From: Crenothrix sp. D3
GTDB taxonomy: Bacteria; Pseudomonadota; Gammaproteobacteria; Methylococcales; Methylomonadaceae
NCBI GenBank assembly: GCA_002134785.1
Contig: MBQZ01000103.1
Coordinates: 26,865-90,864, forward strand
Length of the DNA stretch: 64,000 nucleotides
Reading direction: 5' to 3'
Shown here: one piece after another, positions 8,005 to 27,045 of the stretch
Layout of the letters: each line of letters opens with the position of its first letter
How positions within the stretch are numbered: the first letter of the stretch is position 1
Program-made: the position numbers and the translations under genes
The notes under the pieces: model-generated
The model's database searches: none
The model's input: the letters and a program-made list of their open reading frames with translations, nothing else
What the model was told of the DNA's origin: nothing

Positions 8005-8250
8005 ATGAAAAATACATTGTTAGCATCAAAACGACTGGCATTGTCAGAAAGTGGCTTTGTTTTTGATCCTGTGTCAGGGCAGAGCTTTTCCGTTAATGAG
8101 TCGGGGCTGGTGTTTCTGCGTTTAGCGCAACACGAAGATGACCTCGATAAACTCACCACACAACTGGTTGAACAATTTGATGCCAGCAGCGTAGAAATTA
8201 AACGTGATGTGCAGGATTTTATTAATCGCCTGCAAGGATTTTTAAAATGA
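8005..8250 (+). CDS. PqqD-family protein (RiPP-recognition-element-like peptide chaperone)
   Basis: 81 aa. 'GFVFDPVSGQSFSVNESGLVFLRL...DLDKLTTQLVEQFD...IKRDVQDFINRLQGFL' follows the PqqD/PF05402 pattern. Its stop overlaps the next start (ATGA). Confidence 0.65.
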   Translation: MKNTLLASKRLALSESGFVFDPVSGQSFSVNESGLVFLRLAQHEDDLDKLTTQLVEQFDASSVEIKRDVQDFINRLQGFLK

Positions 8251-9311
8251 GCATCACGGTCGCCGTTACAGGCATGAATGCCCGCGCAGATAATCCAGGA
8301 CCTGGTTTAGCCATCGCACGGTGTTTAAAAGAATCCAACACGCCCACTCGCGTGGTCGGTTTGGGTTATGAAGCATTAGACCCCGCGTTATATCACCGTG
8401 GTTTTGTCGATAGAGGTTATTTACTGCCCTACCCTTCACACGGTGAAGATGCTTTATTAGCGCGAGTGTGTGAACTCCATGAACGGGAAAAATTCGACGT
8501 ATTAATTCCCTGTTTAGATGCAGAAATGCAAAGTTTTGCACGGCTCGCACCAACCTTAGCAGGCATGGGCATTCGTACTTTTATTCCTAATAGCCATCAA
8601 TTAGCCTTGCGCAGTAAAGACCGTTTACCCGAATTGGCAAAAGAAATCGGCATTGCATCGCCCAAAACCCAAGCCATTTATCAAGCGAACTTTTTTCACA
8701 GCTGTCAAAGCCAAGACTGGCAGTATCCGCTGATGGTTAAGGGTTTATTTTATGATGCCAAAATCGCTTATAACGCAGAGGAAGCTGTCGCGGCATTTCA
8801 CCGTATAGCAGGTGAATGGGGCGTTCCCGTGTTGGCGCAAAGCTGGATTGGTGGTGAAGAGATTAATCTGGCGGGTGTCGGTGATGGTGAAGGCGGTTTA
8901 GCGGGTGCAGTGATGATGAAAAAACGCGCCCTGACCGATAAAGGAAAAGGTTGGGCAGGTATTAGCATTCATGATGAAGAACTACTTGCTGCCGCCCAGA
9001 AATTTTGTGCAGTTACTAAATGGCGCGGCGGTTTAGAGCTGGAAATGTTGCGCGATACCCAAGGCGGTCTGCATTTAATTGAAATTAATCCCCGTTTTCC
9101 CGCGTGGATTTATTTATCCGCAGGCGTGGGCTGTAACTTACCTGAACTGTTGGTCAAACTAGCATTAGGTGAAAAATTAATCCCCTCGACACCGACACCC
9201 GCAGGCGTGCTGTTCATTCGCTATGCCGAAGAAGCCATTGTGTCATTAGCTGATTTTGAAAATATAACCGTGTGGGGCGAGACGCTACGCACAGAAGGAG
9301 CATTCGCATGA
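8247..9311 (+). CDS. ATP-grasp carboxylate-amine ligase, substrate unknown
   Basis: 'PLMVKG', 'EEINLAGVGDGEG' and 'LELEMLRD...LHLIEINPRFPAW' (E-x-N Mg/ATP motif), 354 aa. Confidence 0.75.
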   Translation: MSITVAVTGMNARADNPGPGLAIARCLKESNTPTRVVGLGYEALDPALYHRGFVDRGYLLPYPSHGEDALLARVCELHEREKFDVLIPCLDAEMQSFARLAPTLAGMGIRTFIPNSHQLALRSKDRLPELAKEIGIASPKTQAIYQANFFHSCQSQDWQYPLMVKGLFYDAKIAYNAEEAVAAFHRIAGEWGVPVLAQSWIGGEEINLAGVGDGEGGLAGAVMMKKRALTDKGKGWAGISIHDEELLAAAQKFCAVTKWRGGLELEMLRDTQGGLHLIEINPRFPAWIYLSAGVGCNLPELLVKLALGEKLIPSTPTPAGVLFIRYAEEAIVSLADFENITVWGETLRTEGAFA

Positions 9312-10693
9312 AAAATATCACCACTAAAAACCCGTGGGTCGCCCCTGTCATAGTTCGTCATGCGTCTAGCGGCATGAATAAATTCGGTGGGGTGCGTGAT
9401 GCGCAATTTCGCGATGAAATTGCTGGTGTGTCGATTGCCGAACTGGTAGAAAAATACGGTTCGCCGCTGTTCGTGTTATCGGAAGAACATTTACGCCAAT
9501 CGGTGCGCCGTATTAACCGCGCTTTTACCACCCGCTATGCCAAAGTGCGCCAAGCGTGGTCGTATAAAACCAATTATATCAACGCGGTCTCCGCCATTTT
9601 GCACCAAGAAGGCTGTGATGCCGAAGTGGTGTCTGAATTTGAATACGACAAAGCCCGCCGTTTAGGTGTGCCTGCGTCGCGGATTTTCTTTAATGGCCCC
9701 TATAAATCACGCGGTGCATTAACCAAAGCGGTGAGCGAAGGGGCGCGAATTCATGTTGACCATTTGGACGAACTAGCATTATTAGAAGAAGTCGCGGCTG
9801 AACTGGGCATTTTGAACTTCCCGATTACCATTCGCTTGAACTTTGATACAGGCTTTGCGGAAAACTGGGGACGCTTTGGGTTTAACTTAGAAAACGGGCA
9901 GGCAATGGAAGCGGCGCGGCGTATTGCCGCCAGTCCCAATTTAAAACTCACAGGGCTGCATAATCATATCGGCACGTTTATCACTGACCCGCGTGCTTAT
10001 ACCGCGCAAGTCGGCATCATGATTAATTTTATGAACAATGTGGAAGCGGCGACTGATTGCACCATCACCACGCTGGATATAGGCGGCGGTTTTGCCTCGC
10101 GTAATGCCATGCAGGGCGTGTATTTACCGCCTGAACAAATTACCCCCACCGCTGAGCAATACGCCGAAGCGATTTGTGGCGCGTTAGCGATTGGCTTAAA
10201 AGACCGTGAACAACACGGCAAGCCGTTACCCGAATTAGTGTTAGAAACAGGTCGCGCGGTAGTCGATGAAGCGGAATGGCTAATTTCCAGCGTGGTGGCG
10301 AATAAACGCCTGCCGACTGGGCAACGCGCTATGGTGCTGGACGCAGGCGTGAATATTTTATTCACCGCGTTTTGGTATAACCACGAAGTACGCCCTGCGC
10401 GTCCTGTGGAAGGTATCCCCGAAGACACCGTGTTGTATGGCCCGTTGTGTATGAACATTGATGTGGTGCGTCAATCAGTGAGTTTGCCGCCGCTGAAAAC
10501 AGGCGATTTATTGTCGTTTTGGCCTGTCGGTGCTTATAACAATACCCAGTGGATGCAGTTTATTCAGCTCCGCCCTGCGGTGGTCATGGTGCGACAAAAC
10601 GGACAGGTGGATGTAGTGCGCCGCGCGGAAACGCTGGATGATGTGGAAGAACCTGAACGCTTGCCAGCGGATTTGCAACCTGATTTTTCTTAG
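9308..10693 (+). CDS. PLP-dependent decarboxylase, Orn/DAP/Arg decarboxylase (alanine-racemase-fold) family
   Basis: 'GSPLFVLSEEHLR', 'AWSYKTNY' (PLP lysine context), 'LDIGGGF' and 'ETGRAVV' motifs. ATG at 9308 overlaps the upstream stop (ATGA). Confidence 0.8.
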   Translation: MKNITTKNPWVAPVIVRHASSGMNKFGGVRDAQFRDEIAGVSIAELVEKYGSPLFVLSEEHLRQSVRRINRAFTTRYAKVRQAWSYKTNYINAVSAILHQEGCDAEVVSEFEYDKARRLGVPASRIFFNGPYKSRGALTKAVSEGARIHVDHLDELALLEEVAAELGILNFPITIRLNFDTGFAENWGRFGFNLENGQAMEAARRIAASPNLKLTGLHNHIGTFITDPRAYTAQVGIMINFMNNVEAATDCTITTLDIGGGFASRNAMQGVYLPPEQITPTAEQYAEAICGALAIGLKDREQHGKPLPELVLETGRAVVDEAEWLISSVVANKRLPTGQRAMVLDAGVNILFTAFWYNHEVRPARPVEGIPEDTVLYGPLCMNIDVVRQSVSLPPLKTGDLLSFWPVGAYNNTQWMQFIQLRPAVVMVRQNGQVDVVRRAETLDDVEEPERLPADLQPDFS

Positions 10694-10699
10694 CCACTT

Positions 10700-10770
10700 G
10701 TAGGGGCAATCCCTTGTGGTTGACCTGATAACGACCTATTCACAGGGCTGGCACAAGGCACAGCCCCTAC
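10700..10770. repeat. Palindromic intergenic repeat, family R1 (GTAGGGGCAATCCCTTGTGGTTG...GGCACAGCCCCTAC)
   Basis: Near-identical copy at 44271-44332. The termini are inverted repeats gtaggggc/gcccctac. Confidence 0.8.
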
Positions 10771-10828
10771 TTTTAGGCTTAACTTAATGGCGACGCTGCG
10801 TGTGGAAACGAGAAATAAAGAATTAACC

Positions 10829-12961
10829 ATGATGACATCACATTCAATCAAAGTTTTTTGCCAACACTTAGCCCAAGGTTACGCGTGGATATTACTCATG
10901 CCCTCCACTCGTGCTGGCGTGGTACTGATAATGGCAACCTTCGCCACGCCCAACATCGCTATCATCGGTTTATTAGGTGCGAGTTTCACATTATTGAGCG
11001 CACGCGGCTTGCGTGTCACCGAGGGCTTGTCGGCGGTTTATGTGTTTAATGGGCTATTAACAGGCTTGTTTCTTGCCGCGCATTATCAAACTACAGTGCA
11101 TCTCTTATTGTTGCTGGTCTTTGCAAGTGTATTAGTTGCCTTAATAACCCATAGCGTTGCGGGCGTATTGTGGCGATTTTCTCAATTGCCTGTATTGAGT
11201 TTGCCGTTTGTCTTGGCGGCGTGGCTGGCGCAACTGGCAGGAACGAGTTACGGCAATTTATTACCTATTGCTGATGCTAGCCATCTGTCTACCGATTGGA
11301 TAGATACTTTTTTTACTAGCTTGGCGAGCATCTTTTTTCAGCCTAATCCGTACTTGGGTGGCGTGTTATTTATCACACTGTTCATCACTTCGCGCACTTT
11401 GGCTTTTTTAGCGGTGTTGGGATTTTTGGCAGGTGTCGGGTGGCACACACTGTTCACGGGTAACGTGGCAGTTTATGTTGCACCGAATTGGATTTTTAAT
11501 TCAATGTTAGCGGCAATGGCAACAGGTGGATTATTTGTCGTTCCCAGTGTTGGCGGTTTGTTATTAGGCACGGTGGCAGCGTTGTTAGCAGCATTATTAG
11601 CGGCGGCACTCAGTCAATGTTTATTGCCTTTTGGTTTATCGCCGTTAGCCTTGCCGTTTTTACTGTCAACGTGGCTGTGTTTGTACACGGCACAACGCTC
11701 TGGAAAACCTGCGTTAGTCGGTGAACGCGTGCAGTTACCCGAAAAATCCTTAGAAGATGGTCGCTTAGCCCGCACACGGCTGGGTAATCCTGCCAGTGTG
11801 GCGTTGATTCCGCCGTTTATGGGAACATGGCAAGTATCACAAGGACGCGATGGCGAACATACGCACCGTGGATTGTGGCGTGATGCGCTGGATTTTATTG
11901 TCACCGAAGACGGGCAGAGTTTTCATGGTAATGGGCTAGTCGTTGAAGATTTTTTCTGTTTTGGTTTGCCGATAGTCTCACCTTGTTATGGGCAGGTAGT
12001 GCAACTACAAAATAATGTGCTTGATAATGCGATTGGTGAAGTGAATTTACGCGAAAACTGGGGCAACTATGTAGTCATCCGTTTGTATGAGGGTGTTTAT
12101 GTATTATTGGCACATTTACGCTATAACAGCCTCAGTGTCACTGTCGGCGATTGGCTAAAAACAGGGCAAGCAGTGGCACAATGCGGTAATTCAGGACGTT
12201 CACCACAACCGCATTTGCATTTTTCGGTGCTACGTCATGCGACACCCGAAGCGGAAACCCGCCCGTTTCATCTCATCGGTGTGTTATTACAAGCCGAAAA
12301 AAACAATGCCGTTTTTCATCTATGGGCAAATCCTCAACAAAACGACAAAGTCACCGCAGCGTGGTTTGGTGCAGTGCGCCCTTTATCATTGCGGGTCGGT
12401 TTAGGACGCAGTTATCGAGTGCGCGTGAATGGCGGGCAATGGCAATCGTGGCAACTGACTCCGCAACTCAATTTAGCAGGGCAGTTTTTGTTAGTGTCTG
12501 AGTCAGGCGCGAGTTGTTGTTGTGAAGAAAATGGTGCGGTCTTTGCTTGTTATGGGCGCGAAGGCGGCGCAGATGTGTTTCTTGATTTATGGCTATTAGC
12601 GGTCGGTTGCACGCCGTCTTCTGAACACGCGAAACAATGGCGCGATAGCCCGCCAACGCGCTTATTACCCAGCCGCTGGCGGTGGTTGAGTGCGTTATTA
12701 GCCCCTTATGCCACGCAAATCAACGCCCACTATGCTCGCAGTTTTGATGATGCGGCGCGAGTATGGCGACAAACAAGTACGCTTTTCTTATTGGGTAAAC
12801 AAGTGATGACCATTGAAACGGCGATTGTTGCTAATAATGGACTTACTTATTTATTAGCAAATAGCGCGGGGCAACGCTGGGAAATGATACTGGAAGGTGC
12901 GTTTCAAACGGGCGATACGGGTGTTCCTGAACGTGAATGGGCGATAGACACGAACATTTAA
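10829..12961 (+). CDS. Fusion membrane protein: N-terminal urea-transporter-like polytopic domain, M23 (LytM) metallopeptidase domain and an unknown C-terminal region
   Basis: About 300 aa of hydrophobic helices. Then 'HTHRGLWRDALDF' (HxxxD) and 'GNSGRSPQPHLHFSV' (HxH), the M23 motifs. The start is uncertain (10787 or 10829). Confidence 0.6.
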   Translation: MMTSHSIKVFCQHLAQGYAWILLMPSTRAGVVLIMATFATPNIAIIGLLGASFTLLSARGLRVTEGLSAVYVFNGLLTGLFLAAHYQTTVHLLLLLVFASVLVALITHSVAGVLWRFSQLPVLSLPFVLAAWLAQLAGTSYGNLLPIADASHLSTDWIDTFFTSLASIFFQPNPYLGGVLFITLFITSRTLAFLAVLGFLAGVGWHTLFTGNVAVYVAPNWIFNSMLAAMATGGLFVVPSVGGLLLGTVAALLAALLAAALSQCLLPFGLSPLALPFLLSTWLCLYTAQRSGKPALVGERVQLPEKSLEDGRLARTRLGNPASVALIPPFMGTWQVSQGRDGEHTHRGLWRDALDFIVTEDGQSFHGNGLVVEDFFCFGLPIVSPCYGQVVQLQNNVLDNAIGEVNLRENWGNYVVIRLYEGVYVLLAHLRYNSLSVTVGDWLKTGQAVAQCGNSGRSPQPHLHFSVLRHATPEAETRPFHLIGVLLQAEKNNAVFHLWANPQQNDKVTAAWFGAVRPLSLRVGLGRSYRVRVNGGQWQSWQLTPQLNLAGQFLLVSESGASCCCEENGAVFACYGREGGADVFLDLWLLAVGCTPSSEHAKQWRDSPPTRLLPSRWRWLSALLAPYATQINAHYARSFDDAARVWRQTSTLFLLGKQVMTIETAIVANNGLTYLLANSAGQRWEMILEGAFQTGDTGVPEREWAIDTNI

Positions 12962-12988
12962 CTTTAATCAAAATAGGTTATAAAAATA

Positions 12989-13876
12989 ATGAAAAAAAAC
13001 ATAATGCTGTTGTGCTGTACGACTGTACTGGCAAGCTCACTGACGCACGCCAGTGAAGCATGGAAAGTAAATACAGCGGCTCAAGGTACTTATTTAGGTT
13101 ATTCAAACTCACAGTATCGTGACTCACTGCATGAAGAAGGCGCGGTGGTATCGGCTGATTATTTAGATGAAGGCGGAGTCACTGCGGGTTATACGCACAC
13201 TGAACTGACGCTTAAAAATAATCAACCTAGACTTGATCAAAATTCTTATTTTTTATCCGCGCGTAAACATTTTTACATTGACGAACTGGCTGGGAAAATC
13301 ACGCTACGCGCTGATGGGCATTTTATTGATAACACCGACCCTAGTAATGATACCGATGATGTCAGTGTCGGTGCTACTCAAGCCAGTTATCTCAGTAATA
13401 ATAAAAAATATTATGCTGATTTTGGTTATGCCTACAGTCATTATCAAAATAATCTCCATGTTAGCCAATACACGCCCACTGTCGGCGTTGGTGTGTTTGA
13501 TGGTGATGGTTGGTTGCAATTACGCGGTTATTTTATTGAAACGTCCAACCCAGAACGCGCTCAAGGCTTAAGTTCCACGCAAGCCGCAGAAATTAAATAT
13601 ACCCATTGGCTTACGCCTGACGGACTGTTTAAACCCAGTAATTTACAAATCGGCGGCTTAGTGGGTAGACGTTTTTATGCCGTCGATATGGATGCGGGTA
13701 CGGTGGCTAACTTAGCCGATGTACAAACAGGCGGTATCACGACAGGGGCAGAATGGAAGGTAAGCGAACATGGCAAGGTATTATTACTAGGAGGCAATAA
13801 TTTTTATAAAAATAGAACCGCAAGCGACAGTTACTCAGGGGCGTTTGGTTATCTGAATGCTAGCGTTGTTTGGTAA
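12989..13876 (+). CDS. Putative outer-membrane beta-barrel protein
   Basis: Signal peptide 'MKKNIMLLCCTTVLASSLTHA', alternating amphipathic strands rich in Y/G, and a C-terminal aromatic residue '...NASVVW'. Confidence 0.5.
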   Translation: MKKNIMLLCCTTVLASSLTHASEAWKVNTAAQGTYLGYSNSQYRDSLHEEGAVVSADYLDEGGVTAGYTHTELTLKNNQPRLDQNSYFLSARKHFYIDELAGKITLRADGHFIDNTDPSNDTDDVSVGATQASYLSNNKKYYADFGYAYSHYQNNLHVSQYTPTVGVGVFDGDGWLQLRGYFIETSNPERAQGLSSTQAAEIKYTHWLTPDGLFKPSNLQIGGLVGRRFYAVDMDAGTVANLADVQTGGITTGAEWKVSEHGKVLLLGGNNFYKNRTASDSYSGAFGYLNASVVW

Positions 13877-13906
13877 TACACTCATCAATTCACAGAGAAA
13901 AATACA

Positions 13907-14515
13907 ATGAAAAAAATAAAATTGGTACTTTTATTGACAGGATTATTGGCGACATCGTGGGCTTATGCAGACAATGAAGCCGCGTGGACCAGCTCTTACA
14001 GCTTAGAAGCAACTAAAAAATATGCCGATGCACTCGCTGCATTGAATGGAATATCAGCCAGTGGTGACGATGCACAATTATTATTATTGCGTCAAGGTTG
14101 GCTCACTTATTTACAAGGGCAATACAGTGAATCCGTTCAGCATTACCAAGCCGCCATGCAACAAAATCCTAAATCCATAGATGCTGCATTAGGTATGACA
14201 TTACCGCTACTAGCACAACAACGTTGGCAAGAAGCCGCCGTTCACGCTAAAGAGGTATTGAATGCCTCGCCTAACCAATACACGGCTTATTTACGGCTGA
14301 TTGTTGCTGAAGAAGGCGCGAAGGATTGGTCAGCAATGAAAAAACACGCGGAAGAATTAACGCAACATTACCCAACTGATACCTCGGCTTTTGTGTATTT
14401 AGCGCGGGCGTATGCGTGGTTAGGAGATAAAGAAGCGGCTAAAAAAGCCTATACTGCGGCGTTAAGTCGAATGCCTAAACATTATGAAGCGACGGCTTAT
14501 TTAGCTAAACTATAA
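13907..14515 (+). CDS. Periplasmic tetratricopeptide-repeat protein
   Basis: Signal peptide 'MKKIKLVLLLTGLLATSWAYA' and several TPR-like 'W..A...Y..AL...P' units. Confidence 0.65.
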   Translation: MKKIKLVLLLTGLLATSWAYADNEAAWTSSYSLEATKKYADALAALNGISASGDDAQLLLLRQGWLTYLQGQYSESVQHYQAAMQQNPKSIDAALGMTLPLLAQQRWQEAAVHAKEVLNASPNQYTAYLRLIVAEEGAKDWSAMKKHAEELTQHYPTDTSAFVYLARAYAWLGDKEAAKKAYTAALSRMPKHYEATAYLAKL

Positions 14516-14525
14516 GTCGTAGATT

Positions 14526-14559
14526 GCACTCCCAACAAATATGATTTTGTTGGGAGTGC
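14526..14559. terminator. Bidirectional hairpin terminator (14-bp perfect stem)
   Basis: gcactcccaacaaa (14526-14539) pairs with tttgttgggagtgc (14546-14559), with a 6-nt loop. It sits between the TPR gene stop and the orphan speA 3' fragment. Confidence 0.7.
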
Positions 14560-14568
14560 CATTGACCG

Positions 14569-14683
14569 TTATTTTTCCAAATAAGTATAAGCGGTTAATC
14601 CCGCTAGTAGTTCTTGTTCATAATCATGCTGGTCTTTGCGCCTGAGCTGGCTTTTCACTAGCTTTTCACGGTTGGCGATTTTT
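14569..14683 (-). pseudogene. Orphan duplicate of the last ~38 codons of speA
   Basis: 115 bp, ~93% identical by eye (8 mismatches) to 18978-19092. It encodes '...REKLVKSQLRRKDQHDYEQELLAGLTAYTYLEK*' versus the SpeA C-terminus '...REKLVNSQLSRKDQHDYEQELLAGLTAYTYLEK*'. Confidence 0.85.
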
Positions 14684-14725
14684 GATAGTCCATACAAACC
14701 AAGGAACTGGATTGGTTTGTAGGAA

Positions 14726-15118
14726 CTATCGTTCAAGCAATGTAAATTGTGTTTGTTCATAAAATAAACTCATAATGCGCCAACCCTGTTCAGTTTGTGC
14801 CACAACTAATACATCCAAGCCTTCACGTTGTTCTCTATCGGCAATCAGCAAATAGTTCGCTTTGATAATAGCGATTTCACCCTGTTGTTGAACGGATACT
14901 TCAGACCACGTTTCTGTAAACACTTTCGCCTGCAACGCGTATGTTTGTTGCTCTTTAACGCAGTCATTCAAACCAAATACTTCGACTTGAGCATTTTTTT
15001 CTAGTCGAACAATGTTTGCGGTTTCATGAAATAACGCTCGCCAGCCAACGAAATTTTTTTGTGTGAGATACAATGGATAGTGCTGTGCAATCAATTGAGG
15101 AGTATTTAAGTTAACCAT
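14726..15118 (-). CDS. Small protein of unknown function, possibly NTF2-like/SnoaL-like (weak call)
   Basis: 130 aa, no signal peptide, with an alpha+beta pattern ending 'GWRIMSLFYE'. The call rests on size and pattern only. Confidence 0.35.
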   Translation of the reverse strand: MVNLNTPQLIAQHYPLYLTQKNFVGWRALFHETANIVRLEKNAQVEVFGLNDCVKEQQTYALQAKVFTETWSEVSVQQQGEIAIIKANYLLIADREQREGLDVLVVAQTEQGWRIMSLFYEQTQFTLLER

Positions 15119-15258
15119 TTGATTTACTTATAAAATTGTCGCTTTATTTTATGTAAATTTTTTTGCTTACCAAGCAGAAAATATTCAATGCGCGGCGAGA
15201 TAAGTAGCTGACCATTTTTTAACTGTTAGCTATAGCTAACCTAATCTATGCAGCTGTC

Positions 15259-16239
15259 TTAAATGGAATCCATGTATTCTCTGGCTGATTTCATCACCGA
15301 TAAACCCGTGGGGGTTAAATCTCCATACTGCTTAACCACACTGTAACCTGCTTCAAAGTTTTTCTGATCCCGAAGCATTGCAGACTCGGCATATAAGTGA
15401 TCTGAATCATTCAGTACACCACTGGCAAGTAGTTTAGACATTGCCCAGTGCATTCGAGCAGAAACATAAGTTGCGTGGTAGATACCATCCATTGGACGCG
15501 AATCAACGCGCAACGGTGATTGGTAAAGCGTGTCATCATCGTTATTGACCAGAGCTTCATCACTGGCAAAACCAAAAAGTAGTATGTGCGCACTTTCGTG
15601 AGCCATTACTTCTATTAAAGCAACTTCGTTTTCATGGGAGGAGGCATTAAGAAAGAGACCACCCCAAAGCATATAAGAAGAGCCACCATCAAACTGGTAT
15701 TCTGCTGTGGAGTCCCCCTCTACCATGATGATTTGACTTACCAGCGCGTCAAATTCTGCTGCCAGTTCAGGGATTGCAGCACTTAGTAAACGATAACTGC
15801 GTTCAAGCCGTTCACGAAAGCATGACGCAGTCTTTGGAGTTGGTGAAAAAATTTCAAATCTAGCGAGGGGATCTGCGTCCATTAGATTAATGTAACGCGC
15901 AACATGGGCAGTGAGCTTGGCATCATCGAGGGCTAATAATTGCCAGTTTTTATCTTGTGGACGTTCTTGTACTAATTCTTTGAGTAATTGTGTGGCACTA
16001 TCGATGTTATCGCTGTCCAATGCCAGCACTAATTCGGTGTAGATGGCAAACGTTGAAGGGGGAAACTTGTCACCTTGATTTAATCCTGTAATCAACTGAG
16101 TCATTGCCTTGGTGTCGAAGTCAATTTGACCATTAATTTGAGTCGCTATGTAGTCTAAGCTTTCAGCCAGTGAACAACGCATTCTGCGATTTATTGCTTT
16201 AGCACGAATCCCACAAGGGGGGAATTTGAAATCAATCAT
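15259..16239 (-). CDS. HExxH-motif protein; resembles the 'HEXXH motif domain'/alphaKG-HExxH peptide beta-hydroxylase family, or alternatively a metallopeptidase
   Basis: 'GGSSYMLWGGLFLN', 'EVMAHESAHILLFG', 'SPLRVDSRPMDGIYHATYVSARMHW'. Confidence 0.55.
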   Translation of the reverse strand: MIDFKFPPCGIRAKAINRRMRCSLAESLDYIATQINGQIDFDTKAMTQLITGLNQGDKFPPSTFAIYTELVLALDSDNIDSATQLLKELVQERPQDKNWQLLALDDAKLTAHVARYINLMDADPLARFEIFSPTPKTASCFRERLERSYRLLSAAIPELAAEFDALVSQIIMVEGDSTAEYQFDGGSSYMLWGGLFLNASSHENEVALIEVMAHESAHILLFGFASDEALVNNDDDTLYQSPLRVDSRPMDGIYHATYVSARMHWAMSKLLASGVLNDSDHLYAESAMLRDQKNFEAGYSVVKQYGDLTPTGLSVMKSAREYMDSI

Positions 16240-16316
16240 AAGAAGAGAAAGCTAAAATAAAGACTTGTCAATTGAGGGGGAGGGGTAATATTTTAGATTT
16301 AACTTTAAAATTACTG

Positions 16317-16362
16317 ATAAAAAACCGCTGCTGGGAGCACAAATAATGTCGCCCAGCAACGG
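16317..16362 (-). terminator. Rho-independent terminator/attenuator just downstream of the repeat-peptide gene
   Basis: On the minus strand, 'ccgttgctgggcgacattatttgtgctcccagcagcgg' is followed by 'ttttttat'. Confidence 0.6.
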
Positions 16363-16383
16363 CTAACAAATGGCTTTTTAGTA

Positions 16384-16608
16384 TTAAACGTCTGGACCAG
16401 TTTTCATGGGGGACGGTACTTTACCAATTTTCGGACTCAGAACAACAGACGGTACTTTACCAATTTTCGGACTCAGAACAACAGACGGTACTTTACCAAT
16501 TTTCGAACCCAGAACAACAGGTAGTTGCTGTTGACTAAGAGAGTGGCTGGCGATTTTAAAACCATAAAGTTTGGATGGGTCAAGATTGATTTTTTTGTTG
16601 GTATTCAT
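16384..16608 (-). CDS. 74-aa peptide with three tandem 12-aa repeats (VVL[GS][SP]KIGKVPS); candidate precursor/substrate peptide
   Basis: ORF with 'aaagga' 10 nt upstream of the ATG. The repeats are encoded by a 3 x 36 bp tandem DNA repeat. It lies between the ATP-grasp and HExxH genes on the same strand. Confidence 0.55.
   Translation of the reverse strand: MNTNKKINLDPSKLYGFKIASHSLSQQQLPVVLGSKIGKVPSVVLSPKIGKVPSVVLSPKIGKVPSPMKTGPDV
16413..16520. repeat. Tandem repeat, 3 x 36 bp, in-frame within the small ORF
   Basis: Units at 16413-16448 and 16449-16484 are identical ('gacggtactttaccaattttcggactcagaacaaca'). The third (16485-16520) differs at 2 positions. Confidence 0.95.
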
Positions 16609-16638
16609 TTGAGCTGATTCCTTTACGTTCAGTTTAGT

Positions 16639-18498
16639 TTAGTTTAGTTGAGTTGGCAGTGTATATTCATTAAGTAGTCGGGTCAATTCGTTGTAGCGAG
16701 TTTTCGATGCTCTATTGTGATTATTCCAATCTTTAATTTCATTATTCACAACTGTGATTTTATCGATTTTATCGATAGGCAAACCACAATGCAGAAACTC
16801 ATCGGTTTGAATGACCAAGAGTATAGCCTCCACCGTTCTATTCATTAGCAAGGCTATAGTTCTGTCAAACAAGCTCTGTGTATTAAGTATAAGTTGCTCA
16901 CCGAATGGCAATAAAGTCAGCTCGTGACTGCTCAGGTAACATTTGACTCCTTCTGCTGTCATTTTCTGCTGACGCTCTTTAGCAATATCAAGCGCGGCAT
17001 CACCACCAACAAAAACTTCCACAGGAATTCTGCCATCATCACTTAGAATTCTGTCGATATAGATGGGGCGATACGGTTTACTGAGTTCTGCTATAAAAGT
17101 AGGTGAAAAATTGATTTCATTGATGACCGCTCCATTTTCATGCCACGGCTGGCTAATATCTACAGACATAAGATCAACGCCAGCGGTTGATAAACCAAAC
17201 AGAGCCGCCGCTCTAATGGTAATGTCCACATTATCAGGATGAATAATTTTTGTAGCTTCTTCAGCTATCCCGCCCCATTCAGTAGACTCAACTTTTCTGA
17301 GAGGGAGAAACTGCCCTTCTTGTGAAAAACTATCAAGTGTCATGCCCACGCTCGCTAAATTTTCCACTGCCATCGCATCAGTCGGGAATGGCTTACTCCT
17401 TTTCCATGGTAATTTTACATTTTCCTTGGCGTTGGCAATGGCAATCAATTCTGCGACCGTGTGAATGCCATCACCTGTCACTGACTTGGGTATTCTTTTA
17501 AAGGCATACAGCAATTCACCACCTGAAATAAATATCCGATGACACACGCCCAATATGTGACGCTCGACCAGCACTGAGGTTGCTTTTGTCAGTTTAACGG
17601 CTAAGTTAAATGCCTCAATGAGTGTTTTTTCATCATTGACATCAATCGTTATACCTTCACCCCGATTCAAATCCAATGGTTTTACTACCACTGGCCAGCC
17701 GATAATTTTCGCTGCGTCAATTGCTTCTTTTTCGGTACTTACCATAATGTGCTGAGGTGCAGGGAGTCCTGCTGCTCGCATCACGGATGCTGAAATGAAT
17801 TTATTATTGCTCAGTTTTGCGCCTATTAACGAATCAGCTTCTGTCGTCGATATTTGAATCAGTTTCAATTTATGCCCCCAGCCAAGTTGGTAGCAACCAT
17901 CTCCGAGATGGCGAAACGGAATTTTCTTATCATAAACAGCTATCAATATAGGCAATGTGGATTTACCAGTTGCTATTTTTTTAGACATTGGCTTTATAAA
18001 TGACTTATCGATTTCATCAAGCAGGGTGTGCAGATATTCACTACTGTGTTGGTTTTTAACAGCATTAACAATAATCTGTAGTGCAACCCAATAAGCCGTT
18101 TTAGTGACATCAGCTGGCATAGAGTCAATAAAAGGTATCGCGGTTACTACAGTGAACTGGCTGGCATTTTGATCGGCTGCACTGACCTTTAGAACCCGCC
18201 CCGCATCAAAAGCAGGTATTTTTACCCCTTGAAGTAAGCGGCTTGTCAAATGCAAAATGCGCCAAACCAGTTCAACAATCATTTTTTCACAAGACCCATC
18301 TTGATACTGTTCCGACGCACCGCAGGGGACTAGAGCAATTTCAAAGGTATTTATTAACCAATCGTCGATTGCTTTAAAATCAACTTGATCAAGACGCGAA
18401 ACATTGAATGTCAGTAACGTGGCTGGTTGCGACATTCCATAATTATAGCCAAATGAGGGCGATTGAATTATCGGGTGATTAGATTTTGTGGTTTCCAT
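16639..18498 (-). CDS. Cyanophycin-synthetase-like ATP-grasp enzyme (N and G domains only; no Mur-ligase-like M domain)
   Basis: 'GWPVVVKPLDLNRGEGITIDV', 'VLVERHILGVCHRIFISGGELLYAFKRIPKSVTGDGIHTVAELI', 'IHPDNVDITIRAAALFGLSTAGVDLMSVDISQPW...AVINEINFSPTF'. These parallel the CphA ATP-grasp motifs (from memory). The protein is 619 aa versus ~870-900 aa for CphA. Confidence 0.75.
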   Translation of the reverse strand: METTKSNHPIIQSPSFGYNYGMSQPATLLTFNVSRLDQVDFKAIDDWLINTFEIALVPCGASEQYQDGSCEKMIVELVWRILHLTSRLLQGVKIPAFDAGRVLKVSAADQNASQFTVVTAIPFIDSMPADVTKTAYWVALQIIVNAVKNQHSSEYLHTLLDEIDKSFIKPMSKKIATGKSTLPILIAVYDKKIPFRHLGDGCYQLGWGHKLKLIQISTTEADSLIGAKLSNNKFISASVMRAAGLPAPQHIMVSTEKEAIDAAKIIGWPVVVKPLDLNRGEGITIDVNDEKTLIEAFNLAVKLTKATSVLVERHILGVCHRIFISGGELLYAFKRIPKSVTGDGIHTVAELIAIANAKENVKLPWKRSKPFPTDAMAVENLASVGMTLDSFSQEGQFLPLRKVESTEWGGIAEEATKIIHPDNVDITIRAAALFGLSTAGVDLMSVDISQPWHENGAVINEINFSPTFIAELSKPYRPIYIDRILSDDGRIPVEVFVGGDAALDIAKERQQKMTAEGVKCYLSSHELTLLPFGEQLILNTQSLFDRTIALLMNRTVEAILLVIQTDEFLHCGLPIDKIDKITVVNNEIKDWNNHNRASKTRYNELTRLLNEYTLPTQLN

Positions 18499-18732
18499 TT
18501 AATTATGTCTGTGTTCGTTACCAATAGTTTGGATAGTTTTTAGAAAAGAGGAAAAACTTAAATTTAGAGGGTAATGTAGTTACCAATAAATAACGACCTT
18601 AAAAGAAAGATTTCCATGATGCGACTAGAAATGATTTCAGGGTGGATTAAAAATCTCACAGCTTAGAAAAATCAAGGTACTCAAAAATAAGAACAATAGA
18701 TATAGCTAACCGTCAATAAAATGATTACAAAA

Positions 18733-18836
18733 CCGTTCGCACTGAGCTTGTCGAAGCCTGTCATGAGCTTGTCGAATGGTGTGAATGTGGTTCGACAAGG
18801 CTCTCCTGAGTTTAGCGAAGGACTCACCACGAACGG
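18733..18836. repeat. Palindromic MITE/REP-like repeat, family R2 (CCGTTCGC.CTGAGC.TGTCGAA...CTCACCACGAACGG)
   Basis: Related copy at 60602-60707. Termini ccgttcg/cgaacgg are inverted. Outer inverted flanks are 'caataaaatgat'/'atcattttattg'. Confidence 0.8.
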
Positions 18837-18977
18837 TATCATTTTATTGTATTATTGTACGTTAGCTCTATAACCCACTACCGAAAATTTTAAATTTTCT
18901 AGTGACTTTTTTCAAATTTATATGTAGAGAATCTTACACATCTTTAACAACCTTTTCACTTGTTTCAGTAGTCATGG

Positions 18978-20816
18978 TCATTTTTCCAAATAAGTATAAG
19001 CCGTTAATCCCGCTAGTAATTCTTGTTCATAATCATGCTGGTCTTTGCGACTGAGCTGACTATTCACTAGCTTTTCACGATAGGCGATTTTTAATTCTTC
19101 GGTGCTGATATGCACATAATCCAATAAATCAGCGACATTTTCACCTTTGTGCAAATCGTAAAAATGGTAGCCGTTATCATCGAGTTCGATATTAATCGAA
19201 TGGGTATCACCAAACAAATTGTGCATATCGCCTAAAATTTCTTGATACGCACCCAGCATAAAAAACCCAATAAGATACGGCTGTTCGCTATCAATAGCAT
19301 GAATGGGTAGCGTGTGTTCGATATTCTGACCATCAATATATTGGTCAATACGTCCGTCGGAATCACAGGTTAAATCCTGTAATACAGCGCGACGTGTTGG
19401 CTGTTCATTCAAGCGATGAATCGGCATAATGGGGAAAATTTGATCAATCCCCCAGACATCGGGCAGTGATTGAAACAGCGAGAAGTTACAAAACACTTTA
19501 TCTGCCAATTTTTCATCAAGTTCTTGCAAAATGGTCGCTTCGCTTTGATTCGTTGGATTAAGTTGATTTTTAATCTGCTGACAGACCAGCGCGTAATTAT
19601 TTTCAGCAGCCGCTAAGCCATCAATGCTTAATTTATCTTGGGTAAATTGAGTTCGCGCTTCAAACAGTGAGAACTGGGCATTGTGATAATGTTCCGTTAA
19701 ATTCGCGACACTGGGTAACGCTAATAACTCGGCTTCATTGCTGTAAACGGATTCCACATCGGTGACATTGGTGATAAGTACCGCGTGATGCGCAGTCAAC
19801 GCTCTGCCTGATTCGGTAATAATATTCGGTTGCGGCAGTTCTTTTTCTGCACAAATATCGGCAAAACTGCGAACTATATTTTGCGCGTATTCATCCAAAC
19901 TGTAATTAATCGACGATTCACGGCGTGAGCGGCTACCGTCATAATCCACCCCTAAACCACCACCTGCATCAACAATTTTTATGTCCGCGCCCAAACGATG
20001 TAATTCAACATAAAACTGCCCTGCTTCTTTGAGTGCGATTTTAATGTCATGAATATTGGCAATTTGCGAACCCATGTGAAAGTGCATGAGCTTCAGCGTA
20101 TCTAATAAATCCGCTTGTTTTAGACGGTCAATCAGTTGCAATACTTCGTGAGCATGAAAACCGAATTTGGATTTTTCGCCGCCGCTGTTTTGCCATTTAC
20201 CCGCGCTGATACTGGATAAACGAATCCGCACGCCTAATTGTGGCTTTACATTGAGCTTTGCCGCTTCTTCAATAATGAGTTCGAGTTCGAGTGGTTTTTC
20301 AATGACTAGATATAAATCTAAGCCCATTTTCAAACCAATCAACGCGAGGCGAATATAAGCGCGGTCTTTGTAACCATTGCAAATAACTACACCTTTTTTA
20401 GATAACGCCATAATGACGAGTAATTCAGGTTTACTACCTGCTTCCAAACCAATATTATCTGCCGCTAAAATGCCTTCCACGACTTTGCGTTGTTGATTGA
20501 CTTTAATGGGATAAACAGGCGTGTAACTGCCTTGATAATTGTGTTGCACACAGGCTTTAGCAAAGGCGTTTTGTAAGCGTTTCACACGGTCTTTTAAAAT
20601 ATCCGTAAAACGCACTAACACGGGTAGCGACAACTGCTTGTCATTAAGTGATAGAGCTATCTCATATAAATCTAACTCAGTTGCTTGTTCTGAACTGGGT
20701 TTAACGCAGACATGACCTTTATCATTAATGGAAAAATAACCATCACCCCAGTTGTCGATGGCGTAAGTTTGTGCTGATTGCTGGATTGTCCACGTTGGGT
20801 TGGTGCTTGAATTCAC
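18978..20816 (-). CDS. speA: Biosynthetic arginine decarboxylase
   Basis: 612 aa. 'WGDGYFSIN', 'YPIKVNQQ' (PLP lysine), 'GGGLGVDYDG' and the conserved C-terminal region. Confidence 0.95.
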   Translation of the reverse strand: MNSSTNPTWTIQQSAQTYAIDNWGDGYFSINDKGHVCVKPSSEQATELDLYEIALSLNDKQLSLPVLVRFTDILKDRVKRLQNAFAKACVQHNYQGSYTPVYPIKVNQQRKVVEGILAADNIGLEAGSKPELLVIMALSKKGVVICNGYKDRAYIRLALIGLKMGLDLYLVIEKPLELELIIEEAAKLNVKPQLGVRIRLSSISAGKWQNSGGEKSKFGFHAHEVLQLIDRLKQADLLDTLKLMHFHMGSQIANIHDIKIALKEAGQFYVELHRLGADIKIVDAGGGLGVDYDGSRSRRESSINYSLDEYAQNIVRSFADICAEKELPQPNIITESGRALTAHHAVLITNVTDVESVYSNEAELLALPSVANLTEHYHNAQFSLFEARTQFTQDKLSIDGLAAAENNYALVCQQIKNQLNPTNQSEATILQELDEKLADKVFCNFSLFQSLPDVWGIDQIFPIMPIHRLNEQPTRRAVLQDLTCDSDGRIDQYIDGQNIEHTLPIHAIDSEQPYLIGFFMLGAYQEILGDMHNLFGDTHSINIELDDNGYHFYDLHKGENVADLLDYVHISTEELKIAYREKLVNSQLSRKDQHDYEQELLAGLTAYTYLEK

Positions 20817-26184: not shown

Positions 26185-27045
26185 ATGAAACTACTAATTA
26201 TTAGTGCTTTATCGGGGGCAGGTAAAAGTACCGCCTTAGATACCTTAGAAGATTGCGGCTATTACTGTATTGATAATCTGCCTGTGACCTTACTGGAAGA
26301 TTTCATTGATCACGTCATGCTGGCGGATAAAAAAACCTATGAAAAAACCGCTATTGGTATAGATGCTCGCAATAAAAATGAAAGTCTAAGCAATTTTTCC
26401 GACAGTTTAGAGCTTATTCGCAGTAAAGGGATTACCTGTGACATTATCTTTCTACACGCAGATGAAGCCACGCTGCTTAAGCGTTATAGCGAAACGCGTA
26501 GAAAACATCCGCTCACCGATGCCAATATTCCGTTAAAAGATGCGTTAAAAATCGAAAAGGTACTGTTAGAACCCATCGCTAGACACGCTAATATCGTGAT
26601 AGATACCAGCCGAACCCATTATCATCAATTACGCGAACTGATTAAAGAGCAGCTTGATGAAGGTGACTCCAAACATATCTCGTTGCAATTTCAATCATTT
26701 GGTTTTAAAAATGGCATTCCGCTCGATGCTAGTTTTGTGTTTGATGCCCGCACACTCCCCAATCCCTACTGGGTTCCAGAATTGCGCGCCTTATCAGGAA
26801 AAGATAAACCCGTCATAGATTTTCTTAAAGAACAACCATTAGTCAGCGAATTCTTTCAGGATATTAGTCATTTTCTTGAGCGATGGCTACCGCGTTTTGA
26901 TGCCGAAGGGCGCAGTTATTTAACCATCGCCATTGGTTGTACAGGTGGGCAACACCGTTCAGTGTATCTTGCTGACTTATTATGCCAACACTTCAAAAAT
27001 CCAGCACTTAAAGTCATCGTCCGCCATCGGGACTTGATGCACTAA
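26185..27045 (+). CDS. rapZ: RNase adapter protein RapZ (P-loop NTPase)
   Basis: 'SGAGKSTALDTLEDCGYYCIDNLP' and 'IGCTGGQHRSV'. Confidence 0.9.
   Translation: MKLLIISALSGAGKSTALDTLEDCGYYCIDNLPVTLLEDFIDHVMLADKKTYEKTAIGIDARNKNESLSNFSDSLELIRSKGITCDIIFLHADEATLLKRYSETRRKHPLTDANIPLKDALKIEKVLLEPIARHANIVIDTSRTHYHQLRELIKEQLDEGDSKHISLQFQSFGFKNGIPLDASFVFDARTLPNPYWVPELRALSGKDKPVIDFLKEQPLVSEFFQDISHFLERWLPRFDAEGRSYLTIAIGCTGGQHRSVYLADLLCQHFKNPALKVIVRHRDLMH

Follow-up and report, generated by a model that had tools for sequence, protein, structure and literature searches.

Closest described systems

Enzymes of the alpha-ketoglutarate (alphaKG)-HExxH type that have been characterized are leader-dependent hydroxylases of RiPPs (ribosomally synthesized, post-translationally modified peptides), which sometimes act on several consecutive residues and of which one also cleaves the peptide backbone oxidatively (PMC12636437; PMC13060819). 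Their reactions "at present cannot be predicted" (PMC13060819). In corallotide, a graspetide of group 15, an ATP-grasp enzyme and an Fe(II)/2-oxoglutarate (2OG) oxygenase act on five repeated Lys-containing motifs, the oxygenase introducing a hydroxylation at each repeat (PMC13097080). We here describe a locus in a 64,000-nucleotide stretch of contig MBQZ01000103.1 from Crenothrix sp. D3 (positions 26,865 to 90,864, hereafter the window), in which a small open reading frame (ORF) of 74 codons with three tandem 36-bp units lies between the genes for an ATP-grasp ligase and an HExxH protein. This ORF probably encodes the substrate, of the precursor type, of a conserved three-gene peptide-modification system. 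We classify the system as a RiPP-type alphaKG-HExxH system that is known in kind, with a substrate class and a ligase partner derived from cyanophycin synthetase (CphA) that are new. Literature searches that combined HExxH with ATP-grasp, cyanophycin synthetase or Lys returned no description of such a triad, an absence that is no proof of novelty.

We compared the locus to the alphaKG-HExxH RiPP hydroxylases ChlH/ChlB-HExxH (8S5F), SjiH (22ob), BpmH (biphenomycin), PflC/PosC and PesO (nitrilobacillin). Like the ChlH-type enzymes, the 326-aa HExxH protein of the window contains the TIGR04267 domain and the HExxH and RxDxRP..H motifs, its predicted fold agrees with theirs along the full length, and its gene is located beside a small gene for a leader-plus-core peptide, as are those of the known alphaKG-HExxH enzymes. 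PflC/PosC likewise modify a run of repeated residues, in that case consecutive Gln (PMC12636437). Unlike the known enzymes, the window protein is a stand-alone protein of 326 aa with 14-19% identity to solved structures. Its presumed substrates are repeats of Lys, Gly and aliphatic residues, as compared to cyclophane-embedded His/Asp, Gln runs with ARMD, or Pro before R(V/T)DN in the known systems, and its partner is of the ATP-grasp type in place of a radical SAM, MNIO or YcaO enzyme.

Corallotide is the nearest mechanistic precedent that we found, with a ribosomal peptide, repeated Lys motifs and the combination of an ATP-grasp enzyme with an oxygenase (PMC13097080). Every repeat of corallotide needs an acidic partner for the Lys isopeptide, whereas acidic residues are nearly absent in the family of the window peptide, and the enzymes are a graspetide synthetase and a canonical 2OG enzyme in corallotide but CphA-like and HExxH-type here. 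The multi-core RiPP precursors of the cyanobactins and some microviridins share with the window peptide a leader, tandem units and a copy number that varies among strains; in contrast to these, the window peptide has no inter-core recognition or cleavage sequences and no protease, and its repeat is a 4-residue motif when viewed family-wide. The peptide (KIGAKI)3 is a designed antimicrobial peptide that forms an amphipathic beta-strand. Family cores such as GAKIGAKIGGKIG similarly alternate Lys, aliphatic and small residues, which would place the Lys residues on one face if the peptide were extended. The resemblance is compositional only; the natural peptides have a leader and are presumably modified.

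A peptide gene with three in-frame tandem units

The three genes of the system and the parts of the peptide gene, with the evidence for each in brackets, are as follows:

16639..18498, minus strand: ATP-grasp ligase of 619 aa, putatively derived from cyanophycin synthetase (NF010623 and PDB matches)
16384..16608, minus strand: peptide gene, 74 aa (ORF and translation, homologues P0001-P0004, family profile)
16519..16608, minus strand: putative leader region, codons 1-30 (family signature I-x-L-D-x-S-K-L-Y-G-F-K-I)
16411..16518, minus strand: three in-frame 36-bp units (Tandem Repeats Finder, unit-by-unit comparison)
16384..16410, minus strand: C-terminal tail PMKTGPDV and stop codon (translation)
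15259..16239, minus strand: predicted alphaKG-HExxH-type peptide beta-hydroxylase, 326 aa (TIGR04267, ChlH-like predicted fold)

The translated peptide has the layout MNTNKKINLDPSKLYGFKIASHSLSQQQLP-(VVLGSKIGKVPS)(VVLSPKIGKVPS)x2-PMKTGPDV. With a period of 36 bp, 3.0 copies, 97% matches and a score of 204, the array at 16412-16520 is by far the top-scoring tandem array of the window (Tandem Repeats Finder), and its 72 consecutive self-matches at lag 36 cannot be due to chance. When divided in frame, unit 1 (16518-16483) encodes VVLGSKIGKVPS, and units 2 (16482-16447) and 3 (16446-16411) each encode VVLSPKIGKVPS; units 2 and 3 differ in their last base alone, and units 1 and 2 differ at 2 bases. 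In another phase, 16413-16448 and 16449-16484 are exactly identical and the remaining unit is 2 bases off. Both the ORF with its translation and this pattern of two identical units plus one divergent unit had been reported in a first-pass annotation of the DNA and were reproduced exactly here. One K-I-G-K-V-P module is present per 36-bp unit, and the tail contributes a fourth K-x-G motif (K-T-G). An ORF on the plus strand (16406-16534) was rejected as a mere antisense reading of the repeat.

No Pfam or NCBIfam (June 2026) model matched the peptide, and the form with three units is unique to the window, two features that would fit with a chance ORF over a non-coding tandem repeat or an assembly artefact. 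Against this stand the conservation at the protein level across five phyla, always beside the same enzyme gene, the finding that all indels are in frame, and the presence of a ribosome-binding site and a terminator. Taken on these signals, the non-gene explanation is effectively refuted and its probability close to nil; the ORF at 16384-16608 is a genuine gene.

The peptide family and its constant partner

One genome per GTDB species was scanned with a profile of the hydroxylase, by which 215 species were matched and 80 loci retained. A homologue of the peptide was encoded directly upstream of the HExxH gene and on the same strand at 72 of the 80 loci according to hidden Markov model searches, and at 3 more according to a regular-expression scan. 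Four of the remaining five loci are cut by a contig end almost directly upstream of the HExxH gene. Judged by this gene order, the downstream HExxH hydroxylase is the constant partner of the peptide family. The first-pass annotation had not identified the hydroxylase gene (15259-16239); this gene encodes the defining partner, and the ATP-grasp protein is not of the graspetide kind.

The carriers belong to the Proteobacteria, Planctomycetota, Verrucomicrobiota, Gemmatimonadota, Myxococcota and others, and include the cultured Quisquiliibacterium transsilvanicum DSM 29781, Ramlibacter sp. WS9, Caenimonas sp. SL110, Pseudomonas sp. N040 and Devosia aurantiaca. A profile built from 30 family peptides recovered at least 533 protein clusters, all of which are annotated as "hypothetical" and none of which contains a Pfam domain. 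Two features of RiPP precursors were observed: a small ORF adjoining and co-conserved with the gene for a peptide-modifying enzyme (about 75 of the 80 loci), and a leader that is near-invariant across phyla, followed by a more variable core. The leader motif IxLDxSKL(L/Y)GF(K/R)(I/L) is common to the family members, and D10, L14, G16 and F17 are invariant or nearly so across phyla in the family alignment. Two tandem precursor genes were seen in some genomes (loci L017, L019, L071 and L039), and in one protein of 115 aa (P0125), two complete precursors, each with its leader and core, are fused head to tail.

The C-terminal tails of the family are composed of 17% Gly, 15% Lys and 13% Ala, with the core motif G-[AGS]-K-[ILV]-G-x-K-[P/V]. 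K-x-G is present in 2-9 copies in each of the 169 family peptides that have a recognizable leader motif, and the family-wide period is the 4-residue motif G-x-K-h, likewise in 2-9 copies. Long exact repeats of various lengths (4 to 13 aa or more) are present in many members and have arisen independently in these, while many others have none; for example, a 13-aa segment, KIGEKPVSGPMGP, occurs twice in L026, and the core of L081 contains ..IGAKIGKVPPAVLGAKIGKAPPP. The SKIGKVPS units of the window are a local variant of the family core.

These patterns bear on the number of cores in the peptide. The first-pass annotation had proposed a multi-core precursor, in which each of the three 12-aa units would be excised to give a near-identical product of its own. 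The part of that proposal that holds is the precursor-like gene with its conserved leader and repeat-bearing C-terminus, and the three near-identical units after a non-repeated leader, the copy number that varies among strains as in precursors of the cyanobactin and microviridin type, and the long exact repeats elsewhere in the family, such as that of L026, would all fit with it. The part that does not hold is the count of three cores. The units abut directly, without conserved flanking sequences for recognition or cleavage, no conserved protease is encoded near the locus, the repeat lengths vary around a family period of 4 residues, and many members have 2-9 K-x-G motifs without any long repeat. 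We therefore consider separate release of the units improbable, and the 12-aa unit is best read as duplicated modification sites within a single core.

Assignment of the hydroxylase

The 326-aa protein matches TIGR04267 / IPR026337 over residues 146-316 with 99.1 bits, as compared to a cutoff of 40. H214, E215, H218, R244, D246, R248, P249 and H255 are invariant in 53 hydroxylase sequences, and it is at the HExxH and RxDxRP..G..H motifs that the family profile matches ChlH (8S5F) and 22nu. A ChlH-type, zincin-like fold is predicted for the protein by an AlphaFold2 model (pLDDT 95, pTM 0.92), for which the top Foldseek match was 8S5F over the full length (E = 4.5e-11, probability 1.0, TM about 0.6, 337 columns). 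SjiH was also matched, and the next, unrelated match had an E-value of 0.8. By family membership, the protein is most likely an Fe(II)/alphaKG peptide hydroxylase. No match to the HExxH protein was obtained in the PLSDB plasmids with tblastn.

The ATP-grasp ligase and an alternative partner

According to its matches, the upstream ATP-grasp protein is a derivative of cyanophycin synthetase. Its N domain is partial, its G domain intact, and what remains of the M domain has lost the P-loop: GGDAAL stands where the Mur-ligase P-loop GTNGKT is expected. The ATP-grasp motifs K273 and E461-x-N463 are invariant. The protein scored 240 bits against NF010623 (cutoff 877; model positions 117-573 of 871) and 212 against a second CphA model (cutoff 850). 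In the PDB, it matched CphA1 (7LGN, E = 1e-47 with the single sequence) as well as CphA2 (7TA5 and 8FXH), and the family profile matched 7WAC (E = 4e-74) over CphA1 residues 114-527 and reached residue 576 in 7LG5. No similarity to CphA was detectable in the first ~120 and last ~45 residues, and the N-terminal 199 aa and C-terminal 164 aa, when searched alone, gave no sequence matches in the PDB.

Compared to the described cyanophycin synthetases, the ligase thus corresponds to CphA1 (7LGN, 7LG5, 7WAC) from about residue 114 to 576, an extent that comprises the last part of the N domain, all of the G domain and the first part of the M domain. The profile aligns to residues 52-440 of CphA2 (7TA5), and with its length of ~620 aa, its similar domain order and its truncated and inactive M domain, the ligase may share the architecture of CphA2 (7TA5, 8FXH). 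It differs from the cyanophycin synthetases in the low model score and the replaced P-loop, in its gene partners, which are a ribosomal peptide and a hydroxylase instead of cyanophycinase or cphA1, and in its presumed substrate, a ribosomal peptide instead of poly(Asp-Arg).

With an ATP-grasp gene immediately upstream, and with corallotide as a precedent for an ATP-grasp enzyme and an oxygenase that act on repeated Lys motifs, the peptide could also be the precursor of a graspetide, in which the ATP-grasp enzyme would form side-chain ester or amide macrocycles and the hydroxylase would tailor them. The composition of the cores argues otherwise. The window core has one acidic residue (D73) and seven Lys, the family cores have a median of 7 Lys and 2 acidic residues, and of the 169 cores, 15 have no Asp or Glu and 56 have at most one. 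Moreover, the 25 NCBIfam models matched by the ligase are those for cyanophycin synthetase, GshAB and RimK, which match best, and for Ddl and similar enzymes, with no graspetide maturase model among them, and the PDB matches agree. Because acidic residues are few in the cores and the C-terminal residue is not conserved, intramolecular rings of the graspetide type are unlikely, and for the graspetide explanation as a whole we see very little room.

The nearest relatives of the ligase (the G domain of CphA, RimK and GshB) all add an amino acid to a C-terminal carboxylate, and the neighbourhood encodes no conserved exporter or protease that would serve a peptide product. Both observations would suit a peptide that serves as a scaffold or carrier, by the logic of the pearlin or LysW type, so that the ligase adds an amino acid to the C-terminus or to Lys, the hydroxylase tailors it and a small molecule is released. 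However, the family has no conserved C-terminal residue (A, V, R, S, G and others occur), while the K-h-G modules inside the peptide are both conserved and repeated, and no conserved hydrolase for the release was identified. Such a role for the peptide seems quite unlikely, if somewhat less so than a graspetide.

Homologues of the ligase adjoin the peptide and HExxH genes, in various orientations, at 20 of the 80 loci, and a protein of ~320 aa takes its place at 58. Exactly one of these two partner types is present at 78 of the 80 loci, both exceptions being cut by contig ends. Since the two types are interleaved along the ranking of HExxH similarity, the distribution suggests that they are functionally equivalent. 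The profile of the ~320-aa protein matches D-Ala-D-Ala ligases only, over the Mg-ATP motif GRaDF...E(I/V)NT.P and with an E-value of about 1e-3, and no model for this partner is present in NCBIfam (June 2026) or Pfam.

Copy number and core variation in close relatives

Four close homologues of the window peptide were identified, all on metagenomic contigs of the Methylococcales type (P0001-P0004). Three of these (L001, L002 and L003) have 2 units and a length of 62-63 aa, and one (L004) has 1 unit and a length of 58 aa; the frame, the leader and the M-K-x-G-x-D tail are kept in all four. The comparison of repeat copy number in relatives, which had been suggested in the first-pass annotation, thus gave 3, 2, 2, 2 and 1 units in the five alleles, plus one insertion of 3 nt, and every indel is in frame. 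Since the copy-number changes never break the frame, the objection that frame-breaking changes in relatives would mark the repeat as non-coding fails.

A contig of a metagenome-assembled genome (MAG), JAUGSM010000063.1, and one ENA assembly are identical to the window over 16 kb, minus one 36-bp unit. Because assemblies that are identical over 16 kb differ by this one unit, the third unit is either a polymorphism at the strain level or possibly an assembly difference. The suggestion of a recent in-frame duplication is borne out by the 2 units of the otherwise identical MAG and the 1 unit of a plasmid-borne relative; read from these alleles, the 36-bp triplication appears to be a very recent in-frame expansion.

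Two further strains (L089:2135-2215 and L090:483-560) have hydroxylase genes with 97.8% and 99.5% nucleotide identity to that of the window. The 90 nt of leader DNA are identical in these strains and VVLSPKIGK is invariant. The core is hypervariable in comparison to the two strains: the 3-4 codons after each KIGK nearly all differ (VPS, QTLS, TLP, KPS, LQS), and an in-frame insertion of 3 nt is located among them. Leader DNA is thus 100% identical among close strains, while the linker codons of the core differ. In the plasmid copy, the leader differs by 5 synonymous and 3 non-synonymous codon changes, and the core is otherwise decayed but still has two KIG motifs. An exact-match scan of the JGI metagenome contigs with a 29-mer from the leader gave zero matches, and a degenerate scan of the same contigs recovered two more distant relatives only (L091 and L092).

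Putative expression signals of the peptide gene

Two candidate signals flank the peptide gene:

16658..16686, minus strand: sigma-70-like promoter candidate, TTGACC-17 nt-TACACT (consensus scan)
16319..16363, minus strand: terminator-like hairpin plus U6, between the peptide and hydroxylase genes (RNA fold)

The stem-loop and T-run downstream of the ORF that had been noted in the first-pass annotation are real. The hairpin starts 21 nt past the stop codon and has a G+C-rich stem of 13 bp (16363-16325), followed by U6 at 16324-19, with a minimum free energy of -27.3 kcal/mol (z = -3.9; 0 of 200 shuffles were as stable). A hairpin with U-run is also present in the plasmid relative L004. Family-wide, the spacer between the peptide and hydroxylase genes has a median length of 104 nt; a hairpin and U-run are present in it at 22 of 59 loci, and its folding is unusually stable (z <= -2) at 23 of 59. 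No Rfam family was matched in a scan of 14000-19500.

The ATG of the peptide gene is preceded, at 10 nt, by the Shine-Dalgarno-like sequence AAGGA and, at about 50 nt, by the promoter candidate, which lies within the 3' end of the ligase gene. In the plasmid-like L004, which has no ATP-grasp gene, ~85 bp upstream of the ATG are retained, with both hexamers intact and the spacer mutated. Because the hexamers are kept and the spacer is mutated in ligase-free, plasmid-like contigs, the pattern is consistent with a dedicated promoter for the peptide gene. Given such a promoter and terminator candidate, a high ratio of peptide to enzyme transcript is plausible.

A microsatellite of the pentanucleotide CTAAA (coding strand) at 16622-16654 spans the ligase stop codon and the 5' untranslated region of the peptide gene. 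Compared to L089, L090 and the plasmid copy, it is longer by two units (10 nt) in the window and L001, and the distance from the putative -10 element to the ribosome-binding site is therefore altered.

Genomic setting and mobility

On the minus strand, the gene order is speA, the 619-aa ATP-grasp ligase, the peptide, the hairpin, the 326-aa hydroxylase and a gene for a 130-aa protein. The features that surround the system are:

18978-20816, minus strand: speA (gene order)
18977..19095: 119-bp direct repeat, proximal copy; true 3' end of speA and one edge of the cassette
14726-15118, minus strand: gene for a 130-aa protein (weak NTF2/lumazine-binding-like match)
14568..14686: 119-bp direct repeat, distal copy; opposite edge of the cassette, a duplicate of the speA 3' end

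The two 119-bp copies have 92% identity and a spacing of 4409 bp, and their alignment, which covers the ~38 last codons of speA, stops at the speA stop codon. They bracket a 4.3-kb cassette with the ligase, peptide, hydroxylase and 130-aa genes. Because a direct repeat of the speA end brackets it as a whole, the cassette seems to have been inserted at the 3' end of speA. A 63-aa ORF at 14569-14760 is a leftover speA fragment. The 130-aa gene was found only in close relatives and was ruled out as a component of the system. None of the four cassette proteins matched the PADLOC defence models.

The metagenomic contigs L004-L008, of up to 19 kb, encode a Rep3 replicase, ParA, resolvases and several toxin-antitoxin pairs. 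Their HExxH gene has 86% nucleotide identity, and their peptide has one VVLSPKIG unit. Since the pair occurs on such plasmid-like contigs, the module of peptide and HExxH genes is, to judge from its genomic contexts, mobile.

We clustered all ORFs within +/-6 kb of 82 loci, comprising the 80 genome loci plus L001 and L004; beyond the three components of the system, no protease, exporter or other conserved gene emerged. Genes of the ABC type and for flippases were found at 5-11 of the 82 loci, some of which are unrelated housekeeping genes (e.g., lptB). A gene for a Wzx-like flippase (Polysacc_synt_3) lies between the HExxH gene and the gene for the ~320-aa partner at L040, L054, L067, L070 and L074; these five insertions are the sole hint of an export function in the family.

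A separate cluster on the plus strand of the window (8247-14515) starts with an ATP-grasp gene of the ATPgrasp_Ter type (8247-9311), overlapped by a gene for a LysA/FslC-like PLP decarboxylase (9272-10693). These are followed by a 724-aa fusion protein (10787-12961) that joins a urea-transporter-like membrane domain to an M23 peptidase domain, which is an unusual combination, and then by a protein of 295 aa, which has a signal-peptide-like N-terminus and matches no family, and by a TPR lipoprotein. This cluster is absent beside the triad at the other 80 loci and was ruled out as a part of the system.

Proposed modification of the peptide

In the scheme that we propose, the N-terminal ~30 residues (IxLDxSKL(L/Y)GF(K/R)) would serve as the leader by which the peptide docks on the enzymes, and the C-terminal part would be a cationic, Lys/Gly-rich core with repeated K-[I/L/V]-G modules, of which the window peptide has three KIG and one KTG. 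The Fe(II)/alphaKG HExxH oxygenase would hydroxylate the core at several modules, the target being a beta-carbon either of Lys, of the aliphatic residue next to it or of the Pro that follows. The CphA-derived ATP-grasp enzyme would next use ATP to form amide or ester bonds on the core. The G domain of CphA, GshB, RimK and Ddl convert a carboxylate to an acyl phosphate, which is coupled to an amine. The ligase might accordingly join a free amino acid to the epsilon-amines of Lys or to the new hydroxyls, or else activate the C-terminus of the peptide; because the core is almost without carboxylates, acylation of side chains or activation of the C-terminus is likely. The peptide's own promoter and terminator hairpin may attenuate transcription, so that the peptide transcript would exceed the read-through into the hydroxylase gene, and the array of 3 x 36 bp would result from very recent in-frame slippage or recombination, by which one modification module was added.

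Several observations weigh against this scheme. The known targets of HExxH enzymes are His, Asp, Phe, Gln and Pro, and not Lys or aliphatic residues (PMC13060819), and the hydroxylated residue may be Lys, the aliphatic residue or the Pro that frequently follows. The peptide and HExxH genes also occur as a pair without any ligase on the plasmid-like contigs, and the assignment of the ~320-aa partner as an ATP-grasp enzyme is tentative, because a profile-profile comparison with the CphA-like partner revealed no similarity (probability 0.1). Neither a protease nor an exporter is conserved within +/-6 kb of the 82 loci; the removal of the leader and the secretion that are usual for RiPP natural products are for this reason unsupported, and the product may remain intracellular. 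The allele with three units was found in the window only, the assemblies that are otherwise identical over 16 kb having 2.

A more specific proposal, which we put forward tentatively and hold to be less likely than not, is that the family represents a new and widespread class of ribosomal peptides, the K-h-G repeats of which are multiply hydroxylated by a stand-alone alphaKG-HExxH enzyme and then decorated or branched by the CphA-derived ligase, with amino acids joined to Lys side chains or to the hydroxyls formed before.

Significance of the peptide family

Few alphaKG-HExxH enzymes have been characterized, each with a very different substrate. The subfamily to which the locus belongs is large, coherent and apparently unstudied; its layout of peptide, oxygenase and ligase is simple, and it is present in more than 200 species of bacteria, with over 500 precursor clusters. 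As a genome-mining lead whose chemistry we infer from genes, the triad is small enough for direct reconstitution in E. coli. If a ribosomal peptide is indeed the substrate of a CphA-type G domain, this would be new enzymology. The gain and loss of units and the hypervariable linkers among near-identical strains provide a natural experiment in which the evolution of modification-site number can be followed. If the proposal is true, the K-h-G peptides would be the genetically templated equivalent of a branched polyamide, cyanophycin, and slippage of tandem units together with hypervariable linkers would tune the number and context of the modification sites.

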